A DNA stretch of 64,000 nt from Gammaproteobacteria bacterium (GCA_041395385.1 JAWLAN010000009.1:110431-174430), one strand, 5' to 3'; counted from the first letter of the stretch, positions 13,520 to 32,686 are shown. The notes: a model not told the origin generated them from the sequence alone. A program made the numbers and translations.

Positions 13520-13554
13520 GCGGCGGCGGGGGCGGGCAGGCGAACGGAGATCCG

Positions 13555-15330: not shown

Positions 15331-15412
15331 CGGCCTGCCGGGCCCGGCGGGCGCGGACGGGGCCGGCGAGACGGCGCGCTATAATCGCGCCCTGGCAACA
15401 CGGTGCGCGAGC

Positions 15413-16722: not shown

Positions 16723-17154
16723 ATGTTCGTGCACGACAGGGATGCTGCCCGGCGCATGTTCGTCGAGGCCTGGCGCAAGCGCCAGGCCGGGGAGGTGCTG
16801 GAACCGATCGAGGCCCTGATCGCCGATGTCGTCGCCCTGCACCCGGAGTACCAGGGGCTGCTGACCTCCGGGGAGGCGTCGGTCGCGCAGGAGTACACCC
16901 CCGAGCACGGCGTGGCCAACCCCTTCCTGCACATGGGCATGCATATTGCGTTGCGCGAGCAGGTGAGCACCGACCGGCCCGCCGGCATCGCCGGCCTCTA
17001 CCGGCGGGCGGTCGAGCGGCGCGGCGACCCGCATGCCGTGGAGCATGACATGATGGAATGCCTGGGCGAGGCCCTGTGGCGGGCGCAGCGCGACAACGCG
17101 GTGCCCGACGAAGCCGCCTACATGGAGTGCCTGAACCGACGATTGTCGCGATGA
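16723..17154 (+). CDS. DUF1841 family protein
   Basis: 143 aa with the DUF1841 pattern (MFVHDRDAARRMFVEAWRKRQAGEVLEPIEALIADVVALHPEY...). Confidence 0.7.
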   Translation: MFVHDRDAARRMFVEAWRKRQAGEVLEPIEALIADVVALHPEYQGLLTSGEASVAQEYTPEHGVANPFLHMGMHIALREQVSTDRPAGIAGLYRRAVERRGDPHAVEHDMMECLGEALWRAQRDNAVPDEAAYMECLNRRLSR

Positions 17155-18434
17155 ATCTCCCCGTCGATCCCGACCGGACCGTGCCGCGCCAGGAGCGTGC
17201 CATCGAGCGGCAGGTGCGCGTGCTGGCCGAGGCCATACAGGAGTTCGCCACGTCGCTGAACCTGCAGGAGACGCTGCGCAGCGCCATCGCGACCTTCATC
17301 GAACAGATGAACGCCGATGCCGGTTCGATCTTCCTGCTCGAGAGCGACAATACCGAGCTGGTCTGCCAACAGTGCGCCGGTCCGGTGGACATCACCGGGC
17401 TGCGCATTCCCGCGGGCGAGGGCATTGTCGGGCGCACGGTGGCGGAGCGCCGCACGCAGATCGTCCGCAACGCGCAGGACGAATCGCAGTTCAACCCCGC
17501 CATAGACGCCGGCACCGGCTTTCTCACCCGCTCGATACTCTGCGCGCCGCTGGTCGTGCGCGGGCAGAGCATCGGCGCGCTGGAGCTCATCAACAAACGC
17601 ACCGCCGACGGCCAGTTCGAGGAGGAGGACAGGCACCTGGCGACCGCGCTCGCCTCGGCGGCGGCGCTCGCCATCCACAACGCCCGGATGGTTGCAAGGC
17701 TGGTCGACCAGGAGCGCGTGCGCAAGGAGCTGGAGCTGGTGCGCGAGGTGCAGGTAAACCTGCTGCCCAGCCCGACGCACCTGGAGCAGCTTCCGGTCGT
17801 CGCCATCAACATACCGGCGCGGGAGGTCTCGGGCGACTTCTACGACTATTTCGCGCTGGGGAGCTCTCGGGTCTACTTCAACATCGCCGACGTGTCCGGC
17901 AAGGGCATGAACACCGCGCTGTGGATGGCGAAGACGACCGGCCTGCTGCACTGCCTGGCCAAGACCACCGACGATCTCGGCCGTCTGCTCAGCCGCGTCA
18001 ACCAGGAGCTCTGCGAGACCTCCTCGCACGGGATGTTCGTCACCGTGGTCACCGGCTTCATCGACCTGCAGCGCGACGAGATCGTGCTGGCCAACGCCGG
18101 CCATCTGCCGGCGATGTATCGCGGTTCCGACGGCGTGTTCCGCGAGCTGCCCGCGGACGGGCCGCCGCTCGGCGTGGTGCCCGAGGCCGAGTTTCGCTGT
18201 ACCCGCTTCCCGCTCGCCGGCGGCAGCCTGTACATTTACACGGACGGCGTGACCGAATCGCCGGACGACCGCGGTCAGATCCTCGGCGCTGCCGGGCTCC
18301 GGGAGCTCATCGATTCGGTGGCTTCGTTGGCTCCGCGTGCCCGCCTCGAGGGGATGGTGGCGACCCTGCGCCGCAGGGGCCATCGCCAGCGCGACGACAT
18401 TACGCTGATGCTGATTGAACGGGACCTTCGATGA
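17151..18434 (+). CDS. GAF domain-containing PP2C (SpoIIE/RsbU-like) serine phosphatase
   Basis: Start at MNLPVDP, overlapping the DUF1841 stop (ATGA). N-terminal GAF domain; C-terminal PPM motifs (REVSGDFYDY; ADVSGKGMNTA; TDGVTES). Confidence 0.75.
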   Translation: MNLPVDPDRTVPRQERAIERQVRVLAEAIQEFATSLNLQETLRSAIATFIEQMNADAGSIFLLESDNTELVCQQCAGPVDITGLRIPAGEGIVGRTVAERRTQIVRNAQDESQFNPAIDAGTGFLTRSILCAPLVVRGQSIGALELINKRTADGQFEEEDRHLATALASAAALAIHNARMVARLVDQERVRKELELVREVQVNLLPSPTHLEQLPVVAINIPAREVSGDFYDYFALGSSRVYFNIADVSGKGMNTALWMAKTTGLLHCLAKTTDDLGRLLSRVNQELCETSSHGMFVTVVTGFIDLQRDEIVLANAGHLPAMYRGSDGVFRELPADGPPLGVVPEAEFRCTRFPLAGGSLYIYTDGVTESPDDRGQILGAAGLRELIDSVASLAPRARLEGMVATLRRRGHRQRDDITLMLIERDLR

Positions 18435-18847
18435 CCGGACAGCGCCTCCTGAAGGTCAAGTTCCCGGCCGACCCGCGCATACTGCGCAAGGTGCGCGAGC
18501 ACGTGCGCGAGGCCTGCGAGCGCGGCGGCTGCTGCGAGCAGGTCGTCAGCCAGATCGTGCTCGCCGTCAACGAGGCCTGCAGCAACATCATTCGCCACGC
18601 CTACAAGGGCAGCGGCGCAGGTGAAATCATCCTCGAAATCTTCAATAATGGCCGGGAACTGGAGTTTCATCTGCGGGACTTCGCCGAGCCCGTGGATCTC
18701 ACCTCGATAGGTCCGCGCGATCCGCGCGAGATTAAGCCCGGTGGTCTTGGAACGCTGTTTATCCGTGAGATCATGGATGAGTGCGCTTATGGTCACGTGC
18801 AGGGCAAGGCCGGGAATTTCCTGCACATGAAGAAGCGCATCGCCTGA
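18431..18847 (+). CDS. RsbW/SpoIIAB-like anti-sigma factor serine kinase (HATPase_c)
   Basis: 138 aa with N-box (VLAVNEACSNIIRHAY) and G-box (GGLGTLFIREIMDE). Start overlaps the phosphatase stop. Confidence 0.7.
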   Translation: MTGQRLLKVKFPADPRILRKVREHVREACERGGCCEQVVSQIVLAVNEACSNIIRHAYKGSGAGEIILEIFNNGRELEFHLRDFAEPVDLTSIGPRDPREIKPGGLGTLFIREIMDECAYGHVQGKAGNFLHMKKRIA

Positions 18848-18896
18848 TGGCGGCAGGCAGGTCATTTCCGGCTGAGTGCGGCGGGAGAGCGTTGAG

Positions 18897-19229
18897 ATGA
18901 GCTATGCGGTGCGCGATGACAGTGGCTATGCGGTCGTTGAGCTGACCGGCGACGTGGACTTGTCCGCCTCGCCGGAGGCGCGCTCCGCCATACTCGGCTG
19001 CCTGGCGCAGGCGCGAAACGTCCTGGTGGATCTGTCTCGCGTCACCTACATAGACAGCTCCGGCGTGGCGAGCCTGGTCGAGGGCTACCAGACGGCGAAG
19101 AAGAAAAAGCTGCGGTTCGGCCTGATCGGCGTGAGCGAGGCCGCGCTGAGCGTGCTGAAGCTGGCGCGTCTGGACAAGGTCTTTCCCATCCATGCGACGA
19201 TCAACGAACGCATCCGGGCGGATGGCTGA
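18897..19229 (+). CDS. STAS domain anti-sigma-factor antagonist (RsbV/SpoIIAA-like)
   Basis: MSYAVRDDSGYAVVELTGDVDLSAS...VTYIDSSGVASLVEG carries the phosphorylatable DSSG motif. gggagag SD 8 nt upstream of the ATG at 18897. Confidence 0.7.
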   Translation: MSYAVRDDSGYAVVELTGDVDLSASPEARSAILGCLAQARNVLVDLSRVTYIDSSGVASLVEGYQTAKKKKLRFGLIGVSEAALSVLKLARLDKVFPIHATINERIRADG

Positions 19230-20034
19230 CGCGGCCGGGCAATCCTCGGCGGTCCCCATCGAGCACCTCGGACGGGCCGCGGTCGCCGCCGTCGAGGAGT
19301 TCGGCTACTACTTCCTGCTCTGGCTCGAGAGCCTGTACTGGCTGCTGTTCGGCTGGATGAAGAAGCAGCCGGTTCGAATCTCGGCGATGGCCGCGCAGAT
19401 GGTGACCATCGGCATCGCCGCCACGCCCATCGTCACCATCCTCGCGTTCACCATCGGCGTGATGCTCGCCATCCAGGGCATCGCGACGCTGGAGACCTTC
19501 GGCGCCGAGGAGCAGGTCGTGATGGGCATCGCGCTGTCGGTCACGCGCGAGTTCGCCGCACTGATCACCGCGATCGTGGTCGCCGGCCGCTCCGGTTCGG
19601 CGCTCGCCGCGCGCATCGGCACCATGCAGGTCTCCCAGGAGATCGATGCGCTGCGGGTCATGAGCATCAACCCGGTCCGCTACCTCGCCGCTCCGGTGCT
19701 CGCGGCCATGATGGTGATGGTGCCGGCGCTGACCCTCATCGCCGACTTCGCCGCCCTGCTCGGCGGGGCGGTGTTCACCAATCTCGAGCTGGGCCTGTCT
19801 TACTCCGCCTACCTCGACCGCACGCTGAGCTCGCTGGTTTTCGATGACGTGCGGCAGGGGCTGATAAAGAGCCTGGTCTTCGCCACGATCATCACGGTGA
19901 TCGGGGTGAGCAACGGCTTCCAGGTCACCGGCGGTGCCGAGGGGGTCGGGCGCGCCACCACGCGCGCGGTGGTGTTGTCGATCTCCTATATCGTGGTGGC
20001 GGACATGTTGTTCACCTACTTCCTGAACCGCTGA
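19222..20034 (+). CDS. MlaE-family ABC transporter permease
   Basis: About 270 aa permease with the MlaE/YrbE topology. Start ATG overlaps the STAS stop by 8 nt. Confidence 0.75.
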   Translation: MADAAGQSSAVPIEHLGRAAVAAVEEFGYYFLLWLESLYWLLFGWMKKQPVRISAMAAQMVTIGIAATPIVTILAFTIGVMLAIQGIATLETFGAEEQVVMGIALSVTREFAALITAIVVAGRSGSALAARIGTMQVSQEIDALRVMSINPVRYLAAPVLAAMMVMVPALTLIADFAALLGGAVFTNLELGLSYSAYLDRTLSSLVFDDVRQGLIKSLVFATIITVIGVSNGFQVTGGAEGVGRATTRAVVLSISYIVVADMLFTYFLNR

Positions 20035-20040
20035 GTCGCC

Positions 20041-20841
20041 GTGACCCGGACCGAGACCCAGCCCGTCATCGAGGTCAGCGCGCTGACCGCCCATTACGGT
20101 TCGCGCAAGATCCTCGAGGGCATCGACTTCCACGTCGAGCCCGGGGAGATCCGCATCATCATGGGGGGCAGCGGCTCGGGCAAGAGCACGCTGCTGCGCC
20201 ATCTGCTCGGGCTCAACCTGCCCACCAGCGGCAGGGTCCGACTCCTCGGCGTCGACGTCGCCGGCGCCTCCGCCACGGAGCTGCACGAGCTGCGCAGGAA
20301 TATCGGCGTGGCCTTCCAGGGCGGGGCACTGTTCAGCTCGATGACCGTCGGCGAGAACATCAAGCTGCCGCTGCGGGAGCACGCGCGCCTCGACGAGACC
20401 ACCATGGACATCATGGTGCGCCTGAAGCTCGAGGTGGTGAACCTCGCCGGCTTCGAGCACCTGATGCCCGCGCAGCTCTCCGGCGGCATGATCAAGCGCG
20501 CCGCCGTGGCCAGGGCGGTCATCATGGACCCGAAATTGCTGTTCTTCGACGAACCCTCCGCCGGCCTGGATCCGGTCGTCTCGGCGGAGCTCGACGAGAT
20601 GATCCTGCGGCTGCGCGAGGCGATGAACATGAGCATCGTCGTGGTGACCCACGAGCTGGAGAGCGCCTTCAAGATCGCCGATCGCATCACCGTGCTCGAC
20701 CACGGCCGCATCCTCATGACCGGCACCGTCGCGGAGGTCCAGAGCTGCCCGCATCCGCGGGTCCAGGACCTGCTCAACCGCAGACCGCGCCGCTCGGAGG
20801 TCAACGCGGAGGACTACCTGCGGCGACTGACCGGCGGCTGA
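20041..20841 (+). CDS. ABC transporter ATP-binding protein (MlaF-like)
   Basis: Walker A GGSGSGKST, signature LSGGMIKR, Walker B LLFFDEPSAGLD. GTG start 6 nt after the permease stop. Confidence 0.8.
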   Translation: MTRTETQPVIEVSALTAHYGSRKILEGIDFHVEPGEIRIIMGGSGSGKSTLLRHLLGLNLPTSGRVRLLGVDVAGASATELHELRRNIGVAFQGGALFSSMTVGENIKLPLREHARLDETTMDIMVRLKLEVVNLAGFEHLMPAQLSGGMIKRAAVARAVIMDPKLLFFDEPSAGLDPVVSAELDEMILRLREAMNMSIVVVTHELESAFKIADRITVLDHGRILMTGTVAEVQSCPHPRVQDLLNRRPRRSEVNAEDYLRRLTGG

Positions 20842-20920
20842 CGCGCGAAATCACATGAGACGCGGTGGCCGTGGCGTGCGCGCCGCGGACGATCGCGACA
20901 GAGGGGGTTGGGGGAAAGGC

Positions 20921-21946
20921 ATGCGGCGCGACAACATCAATTACCTGGCGGTGGGCGTGTTCGTCCTGGCCGTCGGCGTGGCGTTCCTGTGGGTGCTATA
21001 CCGGCTCACCGGCAGCACCGGACCGACGGATCGCTACTACGCCATATTCGACAGCGTCGGCGGCATCAAGTACGGGACCGTGACCTACTACAAGGGCTAT
21101 CCCGTCGGCCAGGTCGAGTCGGTGCAGCCCGTGGTCACCGACAGCAGGGTCAATTATCGCGTCGAGTTCAGCGTCACCAAGGACTGGAAGATGCCGGTCG
21201 GGAGCGCCGCGGCCATCATGCTGCCGGGCCCCCTGGCGCCGGCGGTGATCGACATCCACGAGGGCAAAGGACCGGGCTGGATGAAGCCCGGCGATGAGCT
21301 CGACGGTGTGGAGCAGGCGGACATGTTCTCCGCGCTCAACGAGGCGGCGGCGGAATTCAAGAAGCTCACCAGCGAGGGACAGCCGCTGCTGCAGAGTCTC
21401 AACGACCGGATCACCGCGCTGAGCATCGAGTACGAGTCGCTGTCGAAGGAGCAGCTGCGGCCGCTGCTCGCCAGCCTGCGCCAGCGGGTGGACGATCCGG
21501 AGCTGTTCGACGAGCTCAAGAAGGTGGTCAAGAAGCTCGACGCCAGCGCCGAGGCGCTGCTGCAGACCGTCAACGCCGAGAACCGTCAGCATATCTCCTC
21601 CATCCTGACCAACGCCGACAAGGGTTCGGCGCAGCTGACCGAGCTGATGGGCCGCATAGAGGAGTCCCGCAAGCAGATGCACGAGCTGTTTCTCGCCATG
21701 GACGCGCTGGTCAGGGAGAACAGGGAGGGTATCAACCGGACCGTGGGCGACGCCTCGGTCACGATGCGGGAATTGCGCGGCAGCATCGAGGTGGTGGCAG
21801 ACAACATCGATGCGATCGTGCATTATCTGGAAGGCAGCGGCCGCAACATGCAGGAGTTCAGCCGCGAGGTGCGCGAGAACCCGAGCGTGCTCTTCCGCGG
21901 CGAGTCGACGCAGGACCCGCTGCCGGCCGGGAATAACAACAATTGA
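20921..21946 (+). CDS. MlaD/MCE domain protein
   Basis: N-terminal TM helix (NYLAVGVFVLAVGVAFLWVLY), then an MCE domain and a long coiled-coil tail. gggggaaagg SD. Confidence 0.7.
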   Translation: MRRDNINYLAVGVFVLAVGVAFLWVLYRLTGSTGPTDRYYAIFDSVGGIKYGTVTYYKGYPVGQVESVQPVVTDSRVNYRVEFSVTKDWKMPVGSAAAIMLPGPLAPAVIDIHEGKGPGWMKPGDELDGVEQADMFSALNEAAAEFKKLTSEGQPLLQSLNDRITALSIEYESLSKEQLRPLLASLRQRVDDPELFDELKKVVKKLDASAEALLQTVNAENRQHISSILTNADKGSAQLTELMGRIEESRKQMHELFLAMDALVRENREGINRTVGDASVTMRELRGSIEVVADNIDAIVHYLEGSGRNMQEFSREVRENPSVLFRGESTQDPLPAGNNNN

Positions 21947-21954
21947 GGAACTGG

Positions 21955-22587
21955 ATGATCGCTTCCGCACGGGCCATCTTGCCCATGCTGCTGGTGGCCG
22001 GAATGCTCGGCGGCTGCGGGCGCGGCGCGCCGATCCCCACCGACACGTACTATCGCCTGGCGGCGCCGCATATCGACGCCGAAGCCGGAGCGCCGCTCGC
22101 CGACGGCGGCATACTCGTGGAGGCATTCGAGGCCGATGCCCTTTACCGGGAGCGGCCGCTGCTTTTCAGCGAGGACGCGGCCAACCTGACGCTGAAGCAG
22201 TACCATCATCACCATTGGCAGGAATCCCCGCCGCGGCTGCTACGCGAGCAGCTCGTCCTGTACCTGCGCGCCGCCCACGCCGCGCCGTGGGTTGCCGGCC
22301 GCGCCGATCAGGCGCCGGCGATGGTCGTACGCGGACGCATCCGGCGCTTCGAGCACATCATCGGCGCGGATGCGGTGACCGCGCGTGTCGCCCTGGAGCT
22401 GCAACTGCGGGGGCAGGACGGAGAGATGCTGATGCTGCGCGACTATCAGCGTGACGAGCCGGCCGCGGGCAAGGACGTGGCCAGCGTGGTGGCGGCGACG
22501 GACGCCGCCCTGAACTCGGTGTTCGAGCAGTTTCTCGCCGACGCGCGCGCCGCCGTGCGCGCGCCCGCGACCGGCCGGTTGCCGTGA
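21955..22587 (+). CDS. ABC-type transport auxiliary lipoprotein (PqiC/DUF330-like)
   Basis: Lipobox LGGCG followed by the TDTYYRL motif typical of PqiC-family lipoproteins of Mce systems. gaggaa SD; 8 nt after the mlaD-like stop. Confidence 0.6.
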   Translation: MIASARAILPMLLVAGMLGGCGRGAPIPTDTYYRLAAPHIDAEAGAPLADGGILVEAFEADALYRERPLLFSEDAANLTLKQYHHHHWQESPPRLLREQLVLYLRAAHAAPWVAGRADQAPAMVVRGRIRRFEHIIGADAVTARVALELQLRGQDGEMLMLRDYQRDEPAAGKDVASVVAATDAALNSVFEQFLADARAAVRAPATGRLP

Positions 22588-24836
22588 AGGAATTCCTCGC
22601 CAAGTTCAGGCGGCACCGCGTGCGCATCATCGCGAGCCTCGCCACGCTCGCCATATTCCTGCTGCACGCGCGCGACGAGGAGGGCGGCCGCTTCCGCTGG
22701 GGCCTGATCGACAAGCTGGAGCACGTCGCCTACGACGCCCGCCTCGCTCTCAGCATGCCGCGCACGGTGGACCCGCGCATCGTCATCATCGACATCGACG
22801 AGAAGAGCCTCGCCGTGGAGGGGCGGTGGCCATGGCCGCGACAGCGGATCGCGGCGATGCTCGAGCAGCTGTTCGAGAAATACCGGGCGCGGCTGGTCGC
22901 CTTCGACGTGGTCTTCGCGGAGCCGGACCAGAGCTCCGGACTGCACGTGCTGGAGGGCCTCGCCGAAGGGGAGCTCAAGACCGTGCCGGAGTTCGGACAG
23001 ACCCTTGCCCGCCTGCGGCCGTCGCTGGACGGCGATGCCGTGCTTGCCGAGACGATGAAGAAGTACCCGGTGGTGCTCGGCTACTTCTTCAACGAGGCCA
23101 ATCCGGCGCGCTCCGGCGCCCTGCCGCCGCCGACCTTCGTGAAGGGCAGCTTCCCCGGCAAGCGCGTCGACTTCCTGAAGGCGGTGGGCTACGGCGGCAA
23201 TCTCGAACAACTGGTGAAGGTTGCCGCGGGAGCCGGGCACTTCAACCCCTCGCTCGACGTCGACGGGGTGGTCCGGCGGGTGCCGATGGTGTTCTCCTTC
23301 GAGGATGCGCAGTACGAGGCGCTCTCGCTCGCGGTCGCGCGGCAGTATCTCGCGGTGAAGGAGGTGCGGGCGGAGTTCGAGCCGGTGCCCGCGATGGCGC
23401 GGCGCAATTATTCGGGGCTGGAGTGGTTGCAGGTCGGCAAGGGGCGCATACCGGTCGACGAGTATGTGCAGGCGCTGGTGCCCTACCGTGGCGCGCAGGG
23501 CAGCTTTCCGTACGTCTCGGCCACCGACGTCATCACCGGCAAGGCCGATCCCGGCGTGCTGAAGGAGGGCGTGATCGTGCTGGTCGGAACGACCGCCGCG
23601 GGTCTGCTGGACATGCGGACCACGCCGGTGCAGCGCGCCTATCCCGGCGTGGAGATCCACGCGAACCTGGTCGCCGGCATACTCGACGGGAAGCTCATGC
23701 AGCGACCCGCCTACGTGCGCGGGCTGGAGTTCATCCTGCTGCTGCTGTTCGGAATCGTGTTCGCCCTGGCGCTGCCGGCGCTCAGCCCCCTGGCGGCCAC
23801 GCTCACGGCCGCCGGCATGCTGGCCGCCTACGTCGGCCTGAACCTGGTGTTCTGGCAGGTCGGCAAGATGGTCGTGCCGGTCGCCACCGGCATCTTCACC
23901 ATGCTGGCCATGTTCCTGTTGAACATGTCGTACGGCTACTTCATCGAGACGCGCGGCAAGCGCCAGCTGACGAGCCTCTTCGGACAGTACGTGCCGCCGG
24001 AGCTCGTCGACGAAATGGCCCGCGATCCGGAGAAATATTCGCTGGAGGCGGAATCCCGCGAGATGACGGTGCTGTTCTCCGACGTCCGCGGCTTCACCTC
24101 GATCTCCGAGGGGCTCGAGCCGAGGCAGCTCTCGGAGCTCATGAACCAGCTGCTCACGCCCATGACGCAGGTGATCCATCTGCAGCGCGGCACGATCGAC
24201 AAGTACATGGGCGACGCGATCATGGCCTTCTGGGGGGCCCCCGTGCCCGACCCCAACCACGCCGCCAACGCCGTCACCGCGGCGCTGCAGATGATGGCCA
24301 AGCTCGGGGAGATCAACGCCTCGTTCCGGCAGCGGCGCTGGCCGGAGATCCACATCGGCGTGGGCATCAACACCGGGACGATGAACGTCGGCAACATGGG
24401 CTCGGAGTTCCGCATGGCGTACACCGTGCTCGGCGACGCGGTGAACCTGGGGTCGCGCCTGGAAGGCCTGACCAAGGGCTACGGCGTGGGCATCATCGTC
24501 AGCGAGAGCACCGCAAAGGGTGCGCCGCAGTTCGCCTATCGCGAGCTGGACGTGGTGCGGGTGAAGGGCAAGGACAGGCCGGTGGCCATCTACGAGCCGC
24601 TGGGACCCCTCAGCAGCATGGACGCGCGCATGCGCGATGAGATCAAGCTGTATCGCCAGGCGCTGAAATACTACCGCGCGCAGGAATGGGACATGGCCGA
24701 GCTGCAGTTTCTCAACCTGGCGAAGTCCTCCTCCTCGCCGCAGCTGTACTCGATGTACGCGGAGCGGGTGGCGCACTTCCGTCGCGAGCCGCCGCCGGCC
24801 AACTGGGACGGCGTCTTCACCCACACCAGCAAGTAG
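22584..24836 (+). CDS. CHASE2 sensor domain-containing class III adenylate/guanylate cyclase
   Basis: N-terminal CHASE2 (RWPWPRQRIAAML...), TM helices, C-terminal CYCc (MTVLFSDVRGFTSISEGL...GDAIMAFWGAP). GTG start overlaps the lipoprotein stop (GTGA). Confidence 0.8.
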   Translation: MKEFLAKFRRHRVRIIASLATLAIFLLHARDEEGGRFRWGLIDKLEHVAYDARLALSMPRTVDPRIVIIDIDEKSLAVEGRWPWPRQRIAAMLEQLFEKYRARLVAFDVVFAEPDQSSGLHVLEGLAEGELKTVPEFGQTLARLRPSLDGDAVLAETMKKYPVVLGYFFNEANPARSGALPPPTFVKGSFPGKRVDFLKAVGYGGNLEQLVKVAAGAGHFNPSLDVDGVVRRVPMVFSFEDAQYEALSLAVARQYLAVKEVRAEFEPVPAMARRNYSGLEWLQVGKGRIPVDEYVQALVPYRGAQGSFPYVSATDVITGKADPGVLKEGVIVLVGTTAAGLLDMRTTPVQRAYPGVEIHANLVAGILDGKLMQRPAYVRGLEFILLLLFGIVFALALPALSPLAATLTAAGMLAAYVGLNLVFWQVGKMVVPVATGIFTMLAMFLLNMSYGYFIETRGKRQLTSLFGQYVPPELVDEMARDPEKYSLEAESREMTVLFSDVRGFTSISEGLEPRQLSELMNQLLTPMTQVIHLQRGTIDKYMGDAIMAFWGAPVPDPNHAANAVTAALQMMAKLGEINASFRQRRWPEIHIGVGINTGTMNVGNMGSEFRMAYTVLGDAVNLGSRLEGLTKGYGVGIIVSESTAKGAPQFAYRELDVVRVKGKDRPVAIYEPLGPLSSMDARMRDEIKLYRQALKYYRAQEWDMAELQFLNLAKSSSSPQLYSMYAERVAHFRREPPPANWDGVFTHTSK

Positions 24837-24884
24837 CGGGGCATGGTGGCCGCCTTACGGCGGTTCGCAGGCCGTACAAACGAA

Positions 24885-24912
24885 AAGGCCCGATGCGTGC
24901 GCGCCGGGCCTT
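24885..24912. terminator. bidirectional rho-independent terminator between convergent cyclase and FHA genes
   Basis: aaggcccg...cgggcctt 8-bp stem. A-tract on one side and T-rich run (ttttcgtttgt on the minus strand) on the other. Confidence 0.55.
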
Positions 24913-24945
24913 CTGTCGTGATCGTCGCGGGCGAGGGGGCGCCGT

Positions 24946-25683
24946 TCAGCGCGTCAGGGTGAACTCCATCTTGATGCCGGCCAGCTCCACGATGTCGCCG
25001 TTGCCCAGGCCGTAGGCCTGCGGACCGATCGGATTGCCGTTGACGATGGGGTAGTTGGTGCCGCCGCCGTCGCTCTCGATGTGGGTCAGGAAATAGCCCT
25101 GAGGCCGGCGGGAGATGACGGCAACCTGCACCCCCGGCTTGCCGAGCGTGATGAGCGCCTTGGTGAGTTCGAGTTCCCGGCCGGCGATGGGGCCGTTCAG
25201 CACGCGCAGCTTGCCGAGCGGCATGCCGGAGCTCGCGACCGCGGGCGCCACGCTCTCGCTCAGGTTGGGCGGGCGTTGCGGGTGCGCCGGCGCGACCCCG
25301 GCGGCAGCGGCGGCCTGCACGCTGGCCGCGGCGGCGCTGGCCGTGCCCGGGCGGATGATCATGGTCTTCTCGAAGTCCTCGTCATGCGCCGTGGCATGCT
25401 CGTTGACGTACTTCAGCTCGTGCTTGCCGATGGCGATTACGTCGCCGTCGCGCAGCGCGTGCTTCTTGATCAGCTTGCCGTTGACGTAGGTCCCGTTGGT
25501 GCTGCCCAGGTCTTCCAGGAAGGAGTCGTCGAGGATGGTGATGATGAGGGCGTGCTTGCCGCTGACAGCGAGATTGTCGATCTGGATGTCGTTGTCAGGC
25601 TTACGGCCTATCGTCGTCCGTTCCTTGGTGAGCGTGAATTCGCGCTGGACGGCACCGTTCAAACTGAGGATCAATTTAGCCAT
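24946..25683 (-). CDS. FHA domain-containing protein (two FHA domains, Ala-rich linker)
   Basis: N-terminal FHA (TIGRKPDNDIQIDNLAVSGKHA...GSTNGTYVNG) and a second C-terminal FHA-like domain. Confidence 0.75.
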   Translation of the reverse strand: MAKLILSLNGAVQREFTLTKERTTIGRKPDNDIQIDNLAVSGKHALIITILDDSFLEDLGSTNGTYVNGKLIKKHALRDGDVIAIGKHELKYVNEHATAHDEDFEKTMIIRPGTASAAAASVQAAAAAGVAPAHPQRPPNLSESVAPAVASSGMPLGKLRVLNGPIAGRELELTKALITLGKPGVQVAVISRRPQGYFLTHIESDGGGTNYPIVNGNPIGPQAYGLGNGDIVELAGIKMEFTLTR

Positions 25684-25697
25684 AGGCCCCTATCCCG

Positions 25698-26531
25698 TTA
25701 TCGCCCTTTCTTTATCCGACCCAAGACATTGTTATACCAGCTCGTTTTGGCCGGAAAGGCACTCAAGACACGTGCCAAGATCACGGACACGTTGTCCTTC
25801 CCCCCGTTCGCATTGGCGATGCGAACCAGTTCGCTACCCGCTTTTTCAAGATTAGCACTAAATTTTCTGAGGGTTAAGCGAATATCTTCATCAGACATCA
25901 TATCATTTAACCCATCCGAGCAAAGCAGGTAGACGTCCCCCGGCAGGGCCGGCTCCTCCTTGATGTCCACCTCGACGTTCTCCTCCACGCCCAGGGCGCG
26001 CGTAACGAGGTTCTTCGGGGTGTTGGCCAGCGCCTCTTCCTTTGTCAAAAATCCCCTTGTAACAAGCTCTTGCACCAGGGAATGGTCGCTCGTGACCTGC
26101 TCGAACAGCTCTCCGCGCAGGCGATAAAGCCGGGAATCGCCGACGTGTGCAACGCAAAAACGGTTGTCGTAGAAGAGCACCGCCAGGGCCGTGGTCCCCA
26201 TCCCGTTGCACTGCGATTCGGTATTGGCGGTCTTGTAGATGTGGAGGTTGGCGTCGCGGATGGCCTTGCGCAGCAGGCTCGCGCCGTGGCTCAGCCCGGT
26301 CTCGGCGTCCGGTGCGTAGGCCGGCCGTATGGCCAGGCCCTGCTTGACCTGGTTCACCGTGACGCTCACGGCAATGGCGCTGGCGACCTCGCCGGCCTTG
26401 TAGCCGCCCATGCCGTCGGCCACCATCGCGAAGCCCAGGGCGGTGTCGGTGGCGGTGCTGTCCTCGTTGCGCGTGCGCTTCTGGCCGGGATCCGAGAAAT
26501 TCGCCATCTGCAGCACGCTTGCCAAGCTCAT
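25698..26531 (-). CDS. PP2C-family Ser/Thr protein phosphatase (Stp-like)
   Basis: PPM motifs (RTRNEDS; MVADGMGG; CSDGL). ggggagag SD upstream of the ATG at 26531, 13 nt after the kinase stop. Confidence 0.8.
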   Translation of the reverse strand: MSLASVLQMANFSDPGQKRTRNEDSTATDTALGFAMVADGMGGYKAGEVASAIAVSVTVNQVKQGLAIRPAYAPDAETGLSHGASLLRKAIRDANLHIYKTANTESQCNGMGTTALAVLFYDNRFCVAHVGDSRLYRLRGELFEQVTSDHSLVQELVTRGFLTKEEALANTPKNLVTRALGVEENVEVDIKEEPALPGDVYLLCSDGLNDMMSDEDIRLTLRKFSANLEKAGSELVRIANANGGKDNVSVILARVLSAFPAKTSWYNNVLGRIKKGR

Positions 26532-26544
26532 CTTCTCTCCCCGG

Positions 26545-29091
26545 TCACGAGCTCTTCCTCTGCGCGCAGGCCTGCAGATCGCGCGCGAACTCCCCGCCGG
26601 TCTGATAGCGCTTGGCCAGGTCTTTCTCGAGGGCCTTGTTGATGACGGTCTGCAGGCACGGCTTGGTACGGGCCAGCTCCGGGCGCGCCTCCAGGATGTC
26701 GGTGTGCGGCTCGTTGGCGATCTTGTACATCAGCGTGGCCATGGAGTCGCCGCGGAACGGCAGGCGGCCGCAGAGCAGCTGGTAGAACGTCACCCCGAGC
26801 GAGAACAGGTCGGAGCGGCCGTCGATCTTGCGGCCGGCGAGCTGCTCCGGGGACATGTAGGAGGGGGTGCCGAGCACCATGCCGGTCTTGGTCTTGCTCG
26901 AATCGGTGATGCGCGCGATGCCGAAGTCCGTCAGCTTGATGGCCTTGGCCTGCGGGTCGTACATGATGTTCGCCGGCTTGATGTCGCGGTGCACGACGTG
27001 CTGCCCGTGCGCATAATCCAGTGCCAGCGCCGACTTGTAGATGATGCCCATCACCAGCGGCACCGGCAGCAGCGCGTCCTCCTTGGTGTAGCGGGTGAGG
27101 TCGTGGCCGGTGAGAAACTCCATGGCGATGTAGGCCAGATCGTGCTCCTCGCCGGCATCGTAGATGGTGACGATGTTCGGGTGCTGCAGGCGGCCCGCGG
27201 TCTCGGCCTCGCGGAAGAATCGCTGCTTCACCTCGTCGAGCTCGTCGGCGTCGAACTCCTGGGAGAGCGCCAGGGTCTTGATGGCCACCACGCGGTTGAT
27301 CTTCGGGTCGCGCCCCAGGTAGACGATGCCCATGGCGCCCTTGCCGAGCTCCTTCTCGACCTGGTAGCGGCCGAGCATCGGCTTCTGCAGCGAGCCGTCC
27401 TCCAGCAGCAGCGTTCCGCCCGGGTGCGGGTTGGCGCCGCCCAGGAGGATGGTGTCCTCCATCTGCTTGGAGCGCGTCATGCGCGTCTCCAGATCGCGGA
27501 ACTTCGGATCGTGGCCCGACATGTACTGGTAGACGGAGTAGGCCTTGGCGAACTGCCGCTTGCGCTCGAAGTCCAGCGCCAGGTTGTAAAGCGGGTCCAT
27601 CATCGAGTCCTCGAGCGGGCACTTGCGGAACTTCTCGAACGCCATGTCGTACTGGCCCTGCTGCTGGAACGCCAGACCGAGCATGCGATTGCTCTCCGCG
27701 GATTCGGTGTCGGCCTTGAGCTTGCCGCGCTCGGTCACCAGGAAGCGCTTGGTGGTCAGCAGCAGGTGCCCGCATACCAGCAGCAGCGCCGCGAGCATCG
27801 TCTGCAGCCAGTTCCCGGACTTCATCGAGAAGAAGCTCAGGGCCAGCAACGCGAGCAGCGCTCCGGCGGTGGCGATCGCGGCGTGACCGGCCTTCAGGCG
27901 CGGCAGCAGATAGGCGAGATACGCGCCGACCAGCAGGAACAGCAGGATCTCCACCCAGATGGCCCAGGCCGGGACCACGAAGAAATTCTCGTTGAGGATG
28001 CTCGCCACGGAGTGCGCGAGGATCAGCACCGGCGGCATCTCCGCCACCGGCGTGTGGAAGGAGTCGCCGACGCCGAATGCGCTGGCGCCGATCAGCACCG
28101 TCTTGCCGGCGTACTTCGAAGCGGGGATCTTGCCGGAGTAGACGTCGTAGAAGGAATCCACCTGGAAGGCCGGCTCGCCGGAGGGCTTGTTCTTGTAGAA
28201 GAACGTGTTCATCCGCGAGATCTGGTCCGTGCGGATCGCGAGCTTGCCCAGGTGCACCGACTCGCCCTTCACCAGCCTGATGTCGCCGCTGCCCAGGTTG
28301 AGCGTGCGGGCCGCGATCGCCAGCGCCATGGACGGGTAGTAACGGTTGTAATAGTTCACCGCCAGCAGATCGGTGCGGATGCCGCCGTCGGCGTCCTGCC
28401 ATTGATTGACGTGGCCGATGGCGCTGGCGCGCGAGCCCAGGCCTTCGATGGGGGTGAAGATCTGGCGGGCCGGGAAGGCGTCGAATCCCTCCACGGCACC
28501 GGAGGAGACATTGGCGTCGTCGATGGCGTTCTGCTCCATGAACGCCGGCGTCGGATTGTCCGGGTTGCCCAGGGGCTCGCCCAGCTCGAAGAGGTTGGCC
28601 ATCACCACGTTGCCGGCCTTCTCGATGGCCGTGGCCAGGTTCTGATCGTAGTCCAGCTCGGTCTTTGCCGCGGCGAGCTCGGTGCCGAGCTCGACTACGG
28701 CCGCGTCGCCGCTGCCCTCCAGCCCGCGTTGCTTGTAGAGATCCAGCAGCCTGTTGATGCGCTCCAGGCCCGGGTCGGCCTGCGGTTCGGTGTACAGCAC
28801 GGTGCTGGCGATGACCTTGGCGCCCGCGGCCGCCAGCATCTCGACCATCTCCGCATGGACCTTGCGGGCCCACGGCCAGCGGCCGATGTTGCTGATGCTG
28901 CTGTCGTCGATGGCGACCACGGCGATCTGGGTGCCGGGGTCGCGCGTGGAGGTGCGCGCCCCGAAGTCGTACGCGGCGCGCTCGATCGTTTCCACCCACG
29001 CCGGACGGTTGCCCATGAGGAACAGGGCAAGAAAGAGCAGCGTGAGGGCCACCCCGGCAAACCAGTCGGTAGTCCAGAACTTCTTGCGCAT
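26545..29091 (-). CDS. CHASE2 sensor domain-containing Ser/Thr protein kinase (Hanks-type) with TPR-like linker
   Basis: N-terminal CHASE2 (GRWPWARKVHAEMV), TM region, C-terminal kinase (GKGAMGIVYLG...VAIK...HRDIKPANIMY...DFGIA...SPE). Confidence 0.85.
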   Translation of the reverse strand: MRKKFWTTDWFAGVALTLLFLALFLMGNRPAWVETIERAAYDFGARTSTRDPGTQIAVVAIDDSSISNIGRWPWARKVHAEMVEMLAAAGAKVIASTVLYTEPQADPGLERINRLLDLYKQRGLEGSGDAAVVELGTELAAAKTELDYDQNLATAIEKAGNVVMANLFELGEPLGNPDNPTPAFMEQNAIDDANVSSGAVEGFDAFPARQIFTPIEGLGSRASAIGHVNQWQDADGGIRTDLLAVNYYNRYYPSMALAIAARTLNLGSGDIRLVKGESVHLGKLAIRTDQISRMNTFFYKNKPSGEPAFQVDSFYDVYSGKIPASKYAGKTVLIGASAFGVGDSFHTPVAEMPPVLILAHSVASILNENFFVVPAWAIWVEILLFLLVGAYLAYLLPRLKAGHAAIATAGALLALLALSFFSMKSGNWLQTMLAALLLVCGHLLLTTKRFLVTERGKLKADTESAESNRMLGLAFQQQGQYDMAFEKFRKCPLEDSMMDPLYNLALDFERKRQFAKAYSVYQYMSGHDPKFRDLETRMTRSKQMEDTILLGGANPHPGGTLLLEDGSLQKPMLGRYQVEKELGKGAMGIVYLGRDPKINRVVAIKTLALSQEFDADELDEVKQRFFREAETAGRLQHPNIVTIYDAGEEHDLAYIAMEFLTGHDLTRYTKEDALLPVPLVMGIIYKSALALDYAHGQHVVHRDIKPANIMYDPQAKAIKLTDFGIARITDSSKTKTGMVLGTPSYMSPEQLAGRKIDGRSDLFSLGVTFYQLLCGRLPFRGDSMATLMYKIANEPHTDILEARPELARTKPCLQTVINKALEKDLAKRYQTGGEFARDLQACAQRKSS

Positions 29092-29240: not shown

Positions 29241-29708
29241 TCAGCCGCCCTGCCCGCACCACTTGTCGGCTTCCTTCTGCGCCGCGGCCTCGGCCTCGGC
29301 GCGCTCCTCCTTGGTCAGGACCCGGTGGTCCTTGCCCTCGCCGTCTTCGTAGAGGTAGCTGGCATTCCGGTACTTCTCCAGCAGGTCCCTGGCCTTCAGG
29401 CAGTTCTCCCGGCGCATCGCCTTCTCCTCGGCGATCCGCGCCTGGGCCTCGGCGTCCTCCGCGCGTTCCTGCTCGAACTGCCTCAGCAGCCGCCGGGTCT
29501 TTTCATCGCGGGCGGCGGCATCTCCATCCGGGGACGGCTCCGCGGCCCGGACCTCGATCTTCTCCGCCGCCGCCGCGTCCGGCCGGTCGCCGTAATGGAC
29601 CTTCCCGTTCGCATCGACCCACTTGTACACGTCGCGCGCGGCCGCCTGCGGCCCCAGCAGCAGGATCGCCATCACCGCGGCAAAGGTCATGCGCAGCGTC
29701 ATCTTCAT
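29241..29708 (-). CDS. DUF4124 domain-containing secreted protein
   Basis: Signal peptide, then DVYKWVDANGKVHYGDRP (DUF4124), then a charged coiled region. Confidence 0.6.
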   Translation of the reverse strand: MKMTLRMTFAAVMAILLLGPQAAARDVYKWVDANGKVHYGDRPDAAAAEKIEVRAAEPSPDGDAAARDEKTRRLLRQFEQERAEDAEAQARIAEEKAMRRENCLKARDLLEKYRNASYLYEDGEGKDHRVLTKEERAEAEAAAQKEADKWCGQGG

Positions 29709-30340: not shown

Positions 30341-32176
30341 TCAGTAGGCCTCCGGCACCCCGCGTGCGGGAGCCGGCGCGGGCTGCGCGCCGGCGCCGCC
30401 GGCATTCTGCTCGTCCTCCTCCTGCTGCTGCAGCTCCCACATCTGGGCGTAGGTCCCCCCGCGGGCGAGCAGCTCGCGGTGGGTGCCACGCTCGATGATC
30501 CGGCCGGCCTCCATGACGAGGATCTGCCCGGCGTCGACGATGGTGGAGAGGCGATGGGCGATGACCAGCGTCGTGCGGTTCTCGGCAATCTCGCGCAGCT
30601 CGGCCTGGATGAGCTTCTCGGTGCGGGAATCCAGCGCCGAGGTGGCCTCGTCGAAGATGAGAATGGCTGGCCGCTTGAGCAGGGTTCGGGCGATGGCCAC
30701 CCTCTGTTTCTCGCCGCCGGAGAGCTTCAGTCCCCTCTCGCCGACCATGGTGTCGTAGCCATCCGGCAGGGTCATCACGAAATCGTGGATATGCGCCGAT
30801 CTCGCCGCCGCGATCACCTCATCATCGCCCGCCTCCGGGTCGCCGTAGGCGATGTTGTACCAGAGCGTGTCGTTGAAGAGCACCGTGTCCTGCGGCACGA
30901 TGCCGATCGCCCGCCGCAGCGATGCCTGCGTGACCGTGCGGATGTCCTGCCCGTCGATGCTGATGCGGCCGCCGCTGACGTCGTAGAACCGGAACAGCAG
31001 GCGCGCGAGCGTGGATTTTCCCGCTCCGCTCGCGCCGACCACGGCCACCTTGTGGCCGGCCGGGACCTCGAAGCTGACGTCGTGCAGGATCTGCCGCTTC
31101 GCCTCGTAGGAGAAATCGACGTGTTCGAAGCGTATCGACGCGCCGGCGAGCGCCAGCGGCGGCGCGCCGGGCTCGTCGTCGACCTCGCGGTGCACCTCGA
31201 GCAGGCCGAAGAGCTTCTCCATGTCGGTGACGGCCTGCTTGATCTCCCGGTACATTACCCCCAGGAAATTCAGCGGCATGTAGAGCTGGATGAGCAGGAC
31301 GTTGACCAGCACGAGATCGCCGATGCTCATGGTCCCGGCGACCACCCCGCGGGCGGCGAGCGCCATCAGCGTGGTCACCGCGCTGGCGATGATGAAGGCC
31401 TGGGTGGAATTGAGCAGCCCGAGGGAGGTGCGGCTCTTCACCGAGGCCTCCTCCCAGCGCTGCAGACTCTCGTCGTAGCGGCGGGTCTCGAAGGCTTCGT
31501 TGCCGAAGTACTTCACCGTCTCGTAATTCAGCAGGCTGTCGATGGCGCGGGTGCTCGCCTTGGAGTCCAGCTCGTTCATGGCGCGGCGGAAGTGCGTGCG
31601 CCACTCGGTTATCACCACCGTGAAAAAGATGTAGCTCGCCAGCGCGAGCAGCGTGATGAGCGCGAACCAGACGCTGAAATTGCGCAGCAGCACGATGCCG
31701 ATGAGCGTGATCTCCACGAACGTGGGGATGATGCTGAAGATGGCGTAGCTCAGCAGCGTGTCGATGCCCTTGGTGCCGCGCTCCACGTCGCGGGTCATGC
31801 CGCCGGTCTGGCGCTCCAGGTGGAAGCGCAGCGACAGCGCGTGCAGGTGGCGGAAGGTCTTCAGCGCGACGTTGCGTATGCTCCGCTGCGCGACGCGCGC
31901 AAACAGGATGTCGCGCAGCTCGCTGAACAGCGTGCTAGACAGCCGCAGCAGCCCGTATCCGGCCACCAGCGAGACCGGCACCGCCAGCAGGGCCTGGCGC
32001 GGGTCCAGGCTGTCGACGATGGCCTTGAGCGTGAGCGGCAGGCCCACGTTGGCGACCTTGGCGATGACCAGACAGCCGAGGGCCAGCAGCAGCCGGGCGC
32101 GGTACTCCCAGACGTAGGGGAGCAGCGATCTCAGCGCCGTCCAGCTGCCGGTCGGGGCGGACCCGGATGTCTTCAC
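30341..32176 (-). CDS. ABC transporter ATP-binding/permease protein (ABCB-type)
   Basis: 611 aa with six N-terminal TM helices and an NBD with Walker A GASGAGKST, signature LSGGEKQR and Walker B ILIFDEATSALD. Confidence 0.8.
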   Translation of the reverse strand: MKTSGSAPTGSWTALRSLLPYVWEYRARLLLALGCLVIAKVANVGLPLTLKAIVDSLDPRQALLAVPVSLVAGYGLLRLSSTLFSELRDILFARVAQRSIRNVALKTFRHLHALSLRFHLERQTGGMTRDVERGTKGIDTLLSYAIFSIIPTFVEITLIGIVLLRNFSVWFALITLLALASYIFFTVVITEWRTHFRRAMNELDSKASTRAIDSLLNYETVKYFGNEAFETRRYDESLQRWEEASVKSRTSLGLLNSTQAFIIASAVTTLMALAARGVVAGTMSIGDLVLVNVLLIQLYMPLNFLGVMYREIKQAVTDMEKLFGLLEVHREVDDEPGAPPLALAGASIRFEHVDFSYEAKRQILHDVSFEVPAGHKVAVVGASGAGKSTLARLLFRFYDVSGGRISIDGQDIRTVTQASLRRAIGIVPQDTVLFNDTLWYNIAYGDPEAGDDEVIAAARSAHIHDFVMTLPDGYDTMVGERGLKLSGGEKQRVAIARTLLKRPAILIFDEATSALDSRTEKLIQAELREIAENRTTLVIAHRLSTIVDAGQILVMEAGRIIERGTHRELLARGGTYAQMWELQQQEEDEQNAGGAGAQPAPAPARGVPEAY

Positions 32177-32194
32177 GGTGGCTCCATCCTGCCT

Positions 32195-32686
32195 CTATTC
32201 GTCAGTCCAGTGACGAAAAGTGGCAGCCTGGCCGACGCGCCTGCCGTCGCGATCGCGCAGATCCCAGATCGTCACGTCGCGGATGCGAAAGCGCCGGCCG
32301 GTGGCGCTGACGCGCACGCCGGAGTAGCCGGTGACGTAGCCCTGCCGGCCGACCTCCTCGAGCACGCGCTGGCGCTCCTGGTGGCAAGCGGCCTCGGCGG
32401 TGTCGCGGGAAGGCGTGCGTACGAAGCGCTCCCACGGCAGCTCCCACAGGGCCAGTGCGGCGCGATTGCCGTAGTTGAGGATGGGCTCGGCGGCGGTGTC
32501 GTGCGAGGCGACCACGAACGGGGCCACGAACAGCCGCTCGGCCTCCTCGAGGGGGTCGCCGCTGCGGGCGATGAGCTCGCCGCCCGTGAGGCGGGCGTGA
32601 CTGTCGAGCAGAACCTGGGTCCAGGGGATGATGACGGTTGGATCGGGCAGATCGATGCGGCCGGAGACGGACATACAGACCGCCAT
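32195..32686 (-). CDS. MEKHLA domain-containing protein
   Basis: 163 aa with the MEKHLA pattern (...FVVASHDTAAEPILNYGNRAALALWELPWERFVRTPSR...SGRRFRIRDVTIWDL...). Confidence 0.7.
   Translation of the reverse strand: MAVCMSVSGRIDLPDPTVIIPWTQVLLDSHARLTGGELIARSGDPLEEAERLFVAPFVVASHDTAAEPILNYGNRAALALWELPWERFVRTPSRDTAEAACHQERQRVLEEVGRQGYVTGYSGVRVSATGRRFRIRDVTIWDLRDRDGRRVGQAATFRHWTDE

Follow-up and report, generated by a model that had tools for sequence, protein, structure and literature searches.

The locus studied here raises the question of whether two sensor proteins encoded side by side belong to one signalling system. Within a 64,000-nucleotide stretch of gammaproteobacterial DNA (GCA_041395385.1; the whole stretch is called the window below), a plus-strand gene encodes a membrane protein with a CHASE2 domain, predicted to be extracytoplasmic, and a class III nucleotidyl cyclase domain. 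It runs convergently toward three minus-strand genes, which encode a CHASE2 Hanks-type Ser/Thr kinase, a PP2C-type phosphatase and an adaptor with FHA folds (together, the kinase triad; Table 1). An earlier interpretation made from the DNA sequence by itself (the sequence-only reading) took this arrangement to be one sensor type feeding a second-messenger output and a phospho-Ser/Thr output in parallel. We found that the gene order is conserved among relatives of the kinase, and because of this conserved synteny we consider it likely that the kinase triad and the CHASE2 cyclase are functionally coupled.

Conservation of the kinase triad and the CHASE2 cyclase

Relatives of the kinase were collected in a scan with one genome per species, which returned at least 585 of them. 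The 80 best-scoring loci, many on contigs of metagenome-assembled genomes (MAGs), were examined; their kinases are full-length and 56 to 60% identical to that of the window, except for two near-identical ones (up to 97%). Synteny was determined by tblastn with the window proteins under identity and coverage thresholds, and at least 4.6 kb of flank was required for the cyclase counts. Wherever there was enough flank, the PP2C gene followed the kinase gene (77 of 77 loci), and the FHA gene followed the PP2C gene in 68 of 72 loci. An orthologous cyclase gene lay directly after the FHA gene in 48 of 60 loci. The identity of these cyclases to that of the window is 50 to 67%, and 96% in the closest relative among species-representative genomes, the uncultured gammaproteobacterial MAG L002, whose proteins are 94 to 99% identical over the region.

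The convergent layout, which is real in the window, turned out to be the minority form of this pairing. The cyclase gene was on the kinase strand in 37 of the 48 loci and convergent in 11; with shorter contigs included, 42 of 54 loci had the same-strand form. The gap between the FHA and cyclase genes on the same strand was usually 21 to 230 nt. This same-strand four-gene cluster occurs in Burkholderiales, Nitrosomonadales, Rhodocyclaceae, Gallionellaceae and some Gammaproteobacteria, and the 11 convergent loci make up the gammaproteobacterial clade of the window. The adjacency of kinase and cyclase survived the inversion of the cyclase gene. The flanking genes vary by lineage (sucCD/Usp/TerC-like, ribH-nusB, cpoB-queE-queC or, in the window's clade, mutS-DUF4124), so that common ancestry of the entire region does not explain the conservation. 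The expectation that the pairing would recur in relatives was thus borne out in Beta- and Gammaproteobacteria, at about 50 to 60% protein identity and with changing flanks. At one of the loci, L035, the kinase and PP2C genes adjoin cpoB-queE-queC.

CHASE2 is among the commonest extracytoplasmic sensor domains of bacteria, and we know of essentially no ligands for it. The two CHASE2 domains of the window are 28% identical, and cross-matches between the cyclase and kinase domains range from 23 to 32% in every related locus. A HMMER search with the CHASE2 domain of the cyclase returned at least 1,331 clusters (at the 50% identity level) with E ≤ 1e-30, nearer to it than the CHASE2 domain of the kinase. 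Among the best 150 cluster representatives, a cyclase domain was found in 115 of 117 full-length proteins and a kinase domain in none, and the kinase CHASE2 domain is about 27% identical to the best cyclase-type representatives. The two domains are therefore distant and not close paralogues, and a recent duplication was rejected. The view that the adjacency is meaningful rather than accidental is supported by the 48 of 60 paired loci, even though the sensor domains are distant. A sequence search of solved structures returned none that covers the CHASE2 domain.

Further genes that recur near the pairing were identified by all-against-all clustering of open reading frames (ORFs) over the loci, followed by Pfam searches, and were counted in 47 loci with about 10 kb of flank. 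In the same-strand form, the four-gene cluster was followed by a gene for a class-II cyclic AMP (cAMP) phosphodiesterase in 25 of these loci and by one for an ATPase with GAF, MshEN and T2SSE domains in 26. A GAF+HD-GYP protein was encoded in 36 (42 of 80 loci overall, within 10 kb) and a cNMP_binding+Rhodanese protein in 16. Cyclic-nucleotide companions that recur in this way suggest that the module is centred on cAMP and regulated by Thr phosphorylation, rather than being a pair of paralogous sensors working in parallel.

When homologues of the phosphodiesterase, the GAF-T2SSE ATPase, the GAF-HD-GYP protein and the cNMP-rhodanese protein were sought by tblastn in the 64-kb window, none of the four was found; the single match, a weak one, linked the T2SSE ATPase to a SpoIIE phosphatase encoded upstream of the cyclase through their GAF domains (28% identity, E 2e-10). 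GAF-HD-GYP is present in 10 of the 12 loci without an adjoining cyclase gene. In the Methylophilaceae loci L010, L045, L046, L054, L056 and L078, its gene lies directly after the FHA gene (at about 13400-15900). Betaproteobacterial loci such as L075 (10001-22511), L097 (1670-14215) and L115 (1767-13668) contain an island on one strand, in the order kinase, PP2C, FHA, cyclase, class-II phosphodiesterase, cNMP-binding/rhodanese, GAF-MshEN-T2SSE and GAF-HD-GYP. The presence of a GAF-gated secretion- or pilus-type ATPase beside a cAMP module is unusual.

The pairing was also viewed from the cyclase. Metagenome contigs carrying the cyclase were scanned, the 80 returned loci were annotated, and at least 1 kb on both sides was required for counting. 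An FHA gene was found beside the cyclase gene in 18 of 44 relatives (41%), with cyclase identities of 38 to 62%. The resulting asymmetry, in which a cyclase accompanies 80% of the triads and a triad accompanies 18 of 44 cyclases, fits the triad as an add-on regulator of a cyclase-centred module.

Predicted activities and gene layout of the module

The cyclase matches the Pfam CHASE2 profile (PF05226) with 203.5 bits against a cut-off of 26.3 and Guanylate_cyc with 81.2 bits. Its metal-binding residues D500 and D544 and its transition-state residues N621 and R625 are at least 95% conserved among 51 orthologues and align to Pseudomonas aeruginosa CyaB (3r5g) and Spirulina CyaC (1wc1). K541 and T614, which specify the substrate and are conserved in the same orthologues, align with the adenylate-specifying Lys/Thr of CyaB and CyaC, unlike the Glu that the guanylate cyclase Cya2 (2w01) has at the position equivalent to K541. 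By these residue matches, the protein is assigned as an adenylate cyclase of subclass IIIb. Its N-terminus is conserved among orthologues, and a crude Kyte-Doolittle scan placed transmembrane segments at residues 383-447, with an N-terminal segment just under the threshold used. When triad-linked and unlinked cyclases were compared, E686 and N711 were the sole positions specific to the linked group (92% of linked versus 23 to 31% of unlinked cyclases). Both positions (about 24639-24641 and 24714-24716) are in the TPR-like C-terminal tail and could mark an interaction surface.

The kinase is predicted to consist of an N-terminal transmembrane segment, a periplasmic CHASE2 domain (175.9 bits; cut-off, 26.3), three transmembrane segments, a TPR-like linker and a Hanks-type kinase domain (Pkinase, 187 bits; cut-off, 31.7). 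A crude Kyte-Doolittle scan gave transmembrane regions at residues 9-27 and about 370-447, which fits one N-terminal and three later segments. The VAIK, HRD and DFG motifs and the activation-loop residues T734 and T736 are all at least 95% conserved among 81 orthologues, and the linker residue T547, in 'EDTILL', is Ser or Thr in 96% of them. The linker between the membrane region and the kinase domain is a conserved segment of the family, and its earlier description as TPR-like corresponds to sub-threshold matches only (TPR_2, 20.5 versus 27 bits). An exact-sequence look-up of the kinase gave no recorded match. The phosphatase passes the Stp1/IreP equivalog model of NCBIfam (NF033484; 249.9 bits, cut-off 230). 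Judged by sequence, the cyclase, the kinase and the PP2C all look catalytically intact.

The adaptor, which bears generic database names ('FHA domain-containing protein'), has a canonical FHA domain (residues 1-100), the motif 'FEKT107MII', a disordered Ala/Pro linker and a degenerate FHA fold (residues 150-245). The N-terminal FHA domain scores 87 bits against the Pfam cut-off of 20.7, and its phosphothreonine (pThr)-binding residues G26-R27, S41, H44 and N63 are invariant among orthologues. T107 is 99% conserved and lies 15 residues past this domain, with Ile at the pT+3 position; FHA domains prefer pTxxI/L sites, and the context of T107 resembles such a site.

The C-terminal 96 residues of the adaptor fail the Pfam FHA profile (15.1 versus 20.7 bits), and hhalign matches this half to the protein's own N-terminal FHA profile with a probability of 94.6% (E 7e-8). 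Since the full-length AlphaFold2 model was poor (predicted local distance difference test [pLDDT] score, 59.6) and its Foldseek matches were not assignable to one domain, the C-terminal domain was modelled alone. This model (pLDDT, 86.9) matched the FHA domains of GarA and OdhI in Foldseek with template-modelling scores of 0.75 to 0.78 and a probability of 1.0. In the hhalign alignment, this domain has Gly-Lys at the position of Gly-Arg and a deletion where the Ser-x-x-His loop would be, so the C-terminal fold is probably not a canonical pThr reader. The name dual-FHA protein, given to it earlier, is thus apt for the two folds, and the second one stays below the Pfam cut-off and does not have the pThr-binding residues.

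Genes in the window, which has a GC content of about 68%, were distinguished from chance ORFs by ORF listing together with third-position GC, and families were assigned with Pfam and NCBIfam profiles. The four ORFs of the module have coding-type GC at third codon positions (GC3, 0.78 to 0.94), and their Pfam domains confirmed the predicted convergence of a CHASE2 cyclase with FHA, PP2C and CHASE2 kinase genes. The minus-strand order is kinase, PP2C and FHA, with gaps of 13 nt and 14 nt, and the GTG start codon of the cyclase gene lies in a 4-nt overlap (GTGA) with the end of an ABC_trans_aux lipoprotein gene, at its stop codon. These short gaps and the overlap support the operon structure. Because of the overlap, the cyclase gene is the last gene of the plus-strand operon, placed directly downstream of the Mla-like/partner-switching genes as the sequence-only reading had it.

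The convergent stop codons are 109 nt apart, and the GC-rich hairpin between them had been proposed as a shared bidirectional terminator (24885-24912). On the minus strand, the hairpin has a fold energy of -28.8 kcal/mol (z -3.2; 0 of 200 shuffles were equally stable) and is followed by the U-rich tail UUUUCGUUUGU; it likely serves the kinase-PP2C-FHA operon as an intrinsic terminator. Its z value on the plus strand is -1.5 and the U-tract there is poor, so the hairpin is convincing as a terminator for the kinase operon only and is a weaker candidate for the cyclase transcript. A simple promoter/terminator scan did not list this hairpin and found no promoter for the kinase operon, and an Rfam scan of the whole window gave no family at gathering score.

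Table 1. Genes and other features of the window discussed in the text, with the evidence for each prediction
Feature	Position	Strand	Evidence and remarks
GAF-SpoIIE phosphatase	17058-18434	+	SpoIIE 142 bits, plus GAF
RsbW-like Ser kinase	18431-18847	+	HATPase_c_2 90.9 bits
STAS antagonist with DSSG phospho-Ser motif	18876-19229	+	STAS 61.8 bits; overlaps mlaE by 38 nt
MlaE permease	19192-20034	+	Pfam MlaE 231 bits
MlaF-like ABC ATPase	20041-20841	+	ABC_tran 104.6 bits
MlaD/MCE protein	20855-21946	+	MlaD 37.7 bits
ABC_trans_aux (PqiC/YmbA-like) lipoprotein, last MCE-transporter gene	21943-22587	+	PF03886 42.5 bits; position conserved in the gammaproteobacterial clade
Predicted receptor adenylate cyclase (CHASE2 sensor, transmembrane bundle, class IIIb cyclase, TPR-like C-terminal tail)	22584-24836	+	Pfam; 750 aa
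GC-rich hairpin between convergent stop codons	24886-24911		Fold energy versus shuffles, sequence
Two-FHA adaptor	24946-25683	-	Pfam FHA, hhalign, AlphaFold model; 245 aa
PP2C-type Ser/Thr phosphatase, Stp1/IreP family	25698-26531	-	Pfam PP2C_2/PP2C
Receptor Ser/Thr kinase, first gene of the kinase operon	26545-29091	-	Pfam; 848 aa
Small secreted DUF4124 protein	29241-29708	-	DUF4124 55.3 bits; GC3 0.92; 149 nt upstream of the kinase

A proposed link from threonine phosphorylation to cAMP and its rivals

We propose that the Thr-phosphorylation module (kinase, phosphatase and FHA adaptor) tunes the CHASE2 receptor cyclase and a cAMP network, and we give this proposal an even chance of being right. 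The kinase would sense a periplasmic or membrane cue through its CHASE2 domain and autophosphorylate at T734/T736 and probably also at T547 in the linker ('DTxxL'), and the N-terminal FHA domain of the adaptor would dock on the phosphothreonine. The kinase would phosphorylate T107 of the adaptor, which could work as a GarA/OdhI-like or DgcB-like intramolecular switch, and the degenerate second FHA fold would alter the activity or assembly of the cyclase or, in some lineages, of GAF-HD-GYP. The PP2C would reset the system. The cyclase would integrate its own CHASE2 input and make cAMP, and in most lineages this cAMP would be degraded by the adjoining class-II phosphodiesterase and read by the adjoining cNMP-binding and GAF proteins. 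The domain content, the catalytic residues, the operon packing, the conserved synteny and the recurring cyclic-nucleotide partners are observed, while we infer which way information flows, which residues are phosphorylated, what the adaptor does and that GAF domains bind cAMP, and we put forward the specific adaptor-mediated route from the triad to the cyclase only tentatively, at somewhat less than an even chance.

Several observations weigh against this proposal. The cyclase and the kinase of the window are encoded on opposite strands and are on different transcripts. Methylophilaceae keep the kinase, PP2C and FHA genes, including the second FHA fold, with no adjoining cyclase gene; since GAF-HD-GYP takes the place of the cyclase there, the partner of the adaptor need not be a cyclase. 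Three Moraxellaceae loci (L035, L059 and L064) have the kinase and PP2C genes only. On the cyclase side, unlinked cyclases reach 57% identity, and several of them form cyclase/class-II phosphodiesterase/cNMP-rhodanese clusters by themselves. The comparison of triad-linked with unlinked cyclases found no Ser/Thr position specific to the linked group, and a dedicated phosphosite on the cyclase is therefore unsupported. This absence mildly favours regulation through the adaptor.

Some of the same observations would be expected if the two proteins were parallel sensors without cross-talk, which give separate cAMP and phospho-Thr outputs to the same or a related cue and are kept together for co-regulation or co-inheritance. 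Both proteins carry full sensor and output domains and could act alone, they are on separate transcripts in the window, the cyclase has no linked-specific phospho-acceptor, and many cyclase relatives occur without a triad. However, the CHASE2 domains are so far apart in every locus (23 to 32% identity) that they need not bind the same ligand. It is also rare for the triad to be found without an adjoining cyclic-nucleotide enzyme (the cyclase in 48 of 60 loci and GAF-HD-GYP in 10 of the remaining 12), and an independent kinase pathway needs none. We regard parallel sensing as unlikely, though deserving of some weight. It is also conceivable that the triad acts downstream of or beside cAMP, with a GAF-HD-GYP phosphodiesterase (for cyclic di-GMP or another nucleotide) or the GAF-T2SSE ATPase as its target and the cyclase as one more input. 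Three observations speak for such a target: 42 of 80 loci have a GAF-HD-GYP gene no more than 10 kb away, it directly follows the FHA gene in the Methylophilaceae that lack the adjoining cyclase, and it is divergent from the kinase gene in several gammaproteobacterial loci. Yet an HD-GYP or T2SSE homologue is nearby in just 1 of the 12 convergent loci (L006), and tblastn found none in the 64-kb window, while the triad and the cyclase persist; we hold this arrangement to be quite improbable.

Coincidental adjacency of unrelated signalling genes would agree with the distance between the two CHASE2 paralogues and with the abundance of signalling genes in such genomes, but the pairing in 48 of 60 loci of Beta- and Gammaproteobacteria, with different flanks and in both orientations, refutes it in effect and leaves it a very small probability. 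Hardly any probability is given to an anti-phage function. The PADLOC profiles PycC (109 bits) and PD-T4-6 (289.7 bits) match the catalytic domains of the cyclase and the kinase, as a Pycsar-like cyclase and/or a PD-T4-6-like kinase would, but the matches cover generic cyclase and kinase catalytic domains only. There is no effector gene, the Lys/Thr of the cyclase is of the purine/adenylate-specifying kind, and the module sits among housekeeping genes (mutS, sucCD and ribH-nusB) and is kept over entire orders, unlike mobile defence islands. A Pycsar/PD-T4-6 defence system was rejected on these grounds.

The upstream operon of the window's clade and comparison with known systems

The genes upstream of the cyclase in the window encode a partner-switching set, with a SpoIIE-type PP2C phosphatase, a GHKL Ser kinase and a STAS protein with a phosphorylatable Ser, followed by an MCE transporter. 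The STAS protein passes TIGR00377 (68.7; cut-off, 53.45) and fails the MlaB equivalog NF033618 (mlaB_1; 26.3 versus a cut-off of 90), being of the anti-sigma-antagonist type. No sigma factor gene is present within 17058-24836. The MlaD/MCE protein scores 46.8 against the cut-off of 135 of the MlaD equivalog TIGR04430 and is accordingly classed as MCE-type, not as strict MlaD. Ten of the 12 convergent loci carry the MlaE, MlaF and MlaD genes, compared with 0 of 42 same-strand loci, and the same counts hold for the STAS gene, the remaining two convergent contigs ending early. In four relatives the Mla genes are missing and the (SpoIIE-)RsbW-STAS genes lead straight into the cyclase gene (L047, 5165-9691; L083, 5138-8247; L085, 2114-5209; L092, 88-4844), which suggests that the lasting association is that of the partner switch with the cyclase and that the transporter is an insert of a sub-clade. 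The envelope-signalling role that the sequence-only reading suggested for the island is hypothetical, since the Mla genes are restricted to this sub-clade and some of its members do not have them.

The clade of the window would have arisen when the inverted cyclase gene was captured by the GAF-SpoIIE/RsbW/STAS(/MlaEFD) operon. Expression of the cyclase, and perhaps the read-out of cAMP through the GAF phosphatase, would then be tied to the partner switch and the MCE transporter. By its gene content, the STAS-MlaEFD set is a natural candidate for STAS-mediated phospho-regulation of an Mla/MCE-type ABC transporter; among the papers accessible to a literature search, none combined partner switching with Mla transport. 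A fuller circuit can be drawn in which the triad is a pThr gate, cAMP is made only when the two CHASE2 inputs coincide, the GAF domain of the SpoIIE phosphatase reads cAMP, and the RsbW/STAS switch phospho-regulates the MCE/Mla transporter, but we think it improbable in this complete form.

On the other side of the module, the DUF4124 protein has a signal-peptide-like N-terminus and a charged, coiled-coil-like C-terminal half, and its gene is directly upstream of the kinase gene in 12 loci of the gammaproteobacterial clade. It could assist the CHASE2 sensor in the periplasm, as an accessory specific to this clade. Its conservation may instead reflect inheritance of the entire region, because mutS is also syntenic in the clade. 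Between mutS and the DUF4124 gene, the minus strand (30341-32686) encodes a 611-aa fused ABC exporter and a 163-aa stand-alone MEKHLA-domain protein (174.9 bits); among the fetched loci, these two genes are common only to the near-identical L002. Elsewhere in the window, the segment 56001-58000 has a GC fraction of 0.593 versus about 0.68 in the rest and may be foreign or non-coding DNA.

The module resembles several described systems in part. The Thr-phosphorylation pathway of the T6SS (type VI secretion system) comprises the PpkA kinase, the PppA PP2C and Fha1/TagH (PMC3953482, PMC5995506). In that pathway, too, a membrane-bound Hanks kinase that senses in the periplasm is encoded together with a PP2C and an FHA adaptor, and it shares with the proposed module the logic of gating a membrane machine post-translationally by pThr-FHA docking. 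Here, in contrast, sensing is by CHASE2, a degenerate second FHA fold is part of the adaptor, and the partners are an adenylate cyclase, as predicted, and cyclic-nucleotide enzymes. The adaptor fails the TagH model TIGR03354 (43.5 versus 120.25 bits), and no T6SS gene was found among the annotated recurring neighbours of 160 loci, in which no explicit T6SS profile search was made. Identity with the T6SS phosphorylation pathway was rejected for these two reasons.

Synechocystis Cya1 is an example of an FHA-containing cyclase. Structural matches of the adaptor include 3gqs, an FHA domain from a Chlamydia 'adenylate cyclase-like protein', and Bdellovibrio DgcB, an FHA-GGDEF protein in which the ligand of the FHA domain is the phosphorylated tail of the same protein (PMC6733907). 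Such proteins are a precedent for the control of a second-messenger cyclase by a canonical FHA domain that reads phosphopeptides, and the own-tail ligand of DgcB resembles the switch proposed for T107. Unlike the fused FHA-cyclases DgcB and 3gqs, the module would use a separate two-domain adaptor with its own kinase and phosphatase, and its cyclase belongs to the class III CHASE2 receptors. Both FHA folds of the adaptor find their best matches, in sequence and in structure, in the actinobacterial proteins GarA and OdhI. These are small and have, beyond their FHA domain, a conserved Thr motif whose phosphorylation by a Hanks kinase switches the protein between targets. The phospho-motif of GarA is N-terminal (ETTS) and its targets are enzymes of the tricarboxylic acid cycle and glutamate metabolism, whereas the adaptor has its motif after the FHA domain, contains a second FHA fold and is encoded beside signalling enzymes.

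Receptor cyclases with the same CHASE2 plus class III architecture are known from Sinorhizobium meliloti, in which CyaD1, CyaD2 and CyaK make cAMP when an accessory envelope protein, NsrA, relays a signal from outside the cytoplasm (PMC13001267). No kinase, PP2C or FHA partner has been described for them, the module differs from that system as described, and the window's clade has the secreted DUF4124 protein encoded upstream of the kinase. The MlaFEDB transporter has a STAS subunit, MlaB, and Kolich et al. (2020) left STAS phosphoregulation of an Mla-type transporter as a question (PMC7367683). The upstream operon resembles RsbU/W/V and MlaFEDB together, with its SpoIIE-type phosphatase, RsbW-like kinase, DSSG-containing STAS protein and MlaE, MlaF and MlaD; it differs from them in having no sigma factor, MlaC or MlaA and in ending with the predicted adenylate cyclase gene.

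Each part of the module is thus a standard family member, and the kinase/PP2C/FHA/CHASE2-cyclase cluster is apparently undescribed: full-text literature searches, whose coverage left out most subscription journals, returned no description of it. The conserved cluster, which would be shared by hundreds of Beta- and Gammaproteobacteria, suggests a link between threonine phosphorylation and cAMP signalling. It offers a testable entry to the roles of Hanks-type kinases in Proteobacteria outside type VI secretion and to the post-translational regulation of class III receptor cyclases. The variant in the window ties the module to a partner switch and an MCE transporter and so bears on STAS phospho-regulation of Mla-type transporters; if the reading built on the SpoIIE GAF domain and the STAS protein is true, it would show in nature how a STAS protein phosphoregulates an Mla-like ABC transporter.

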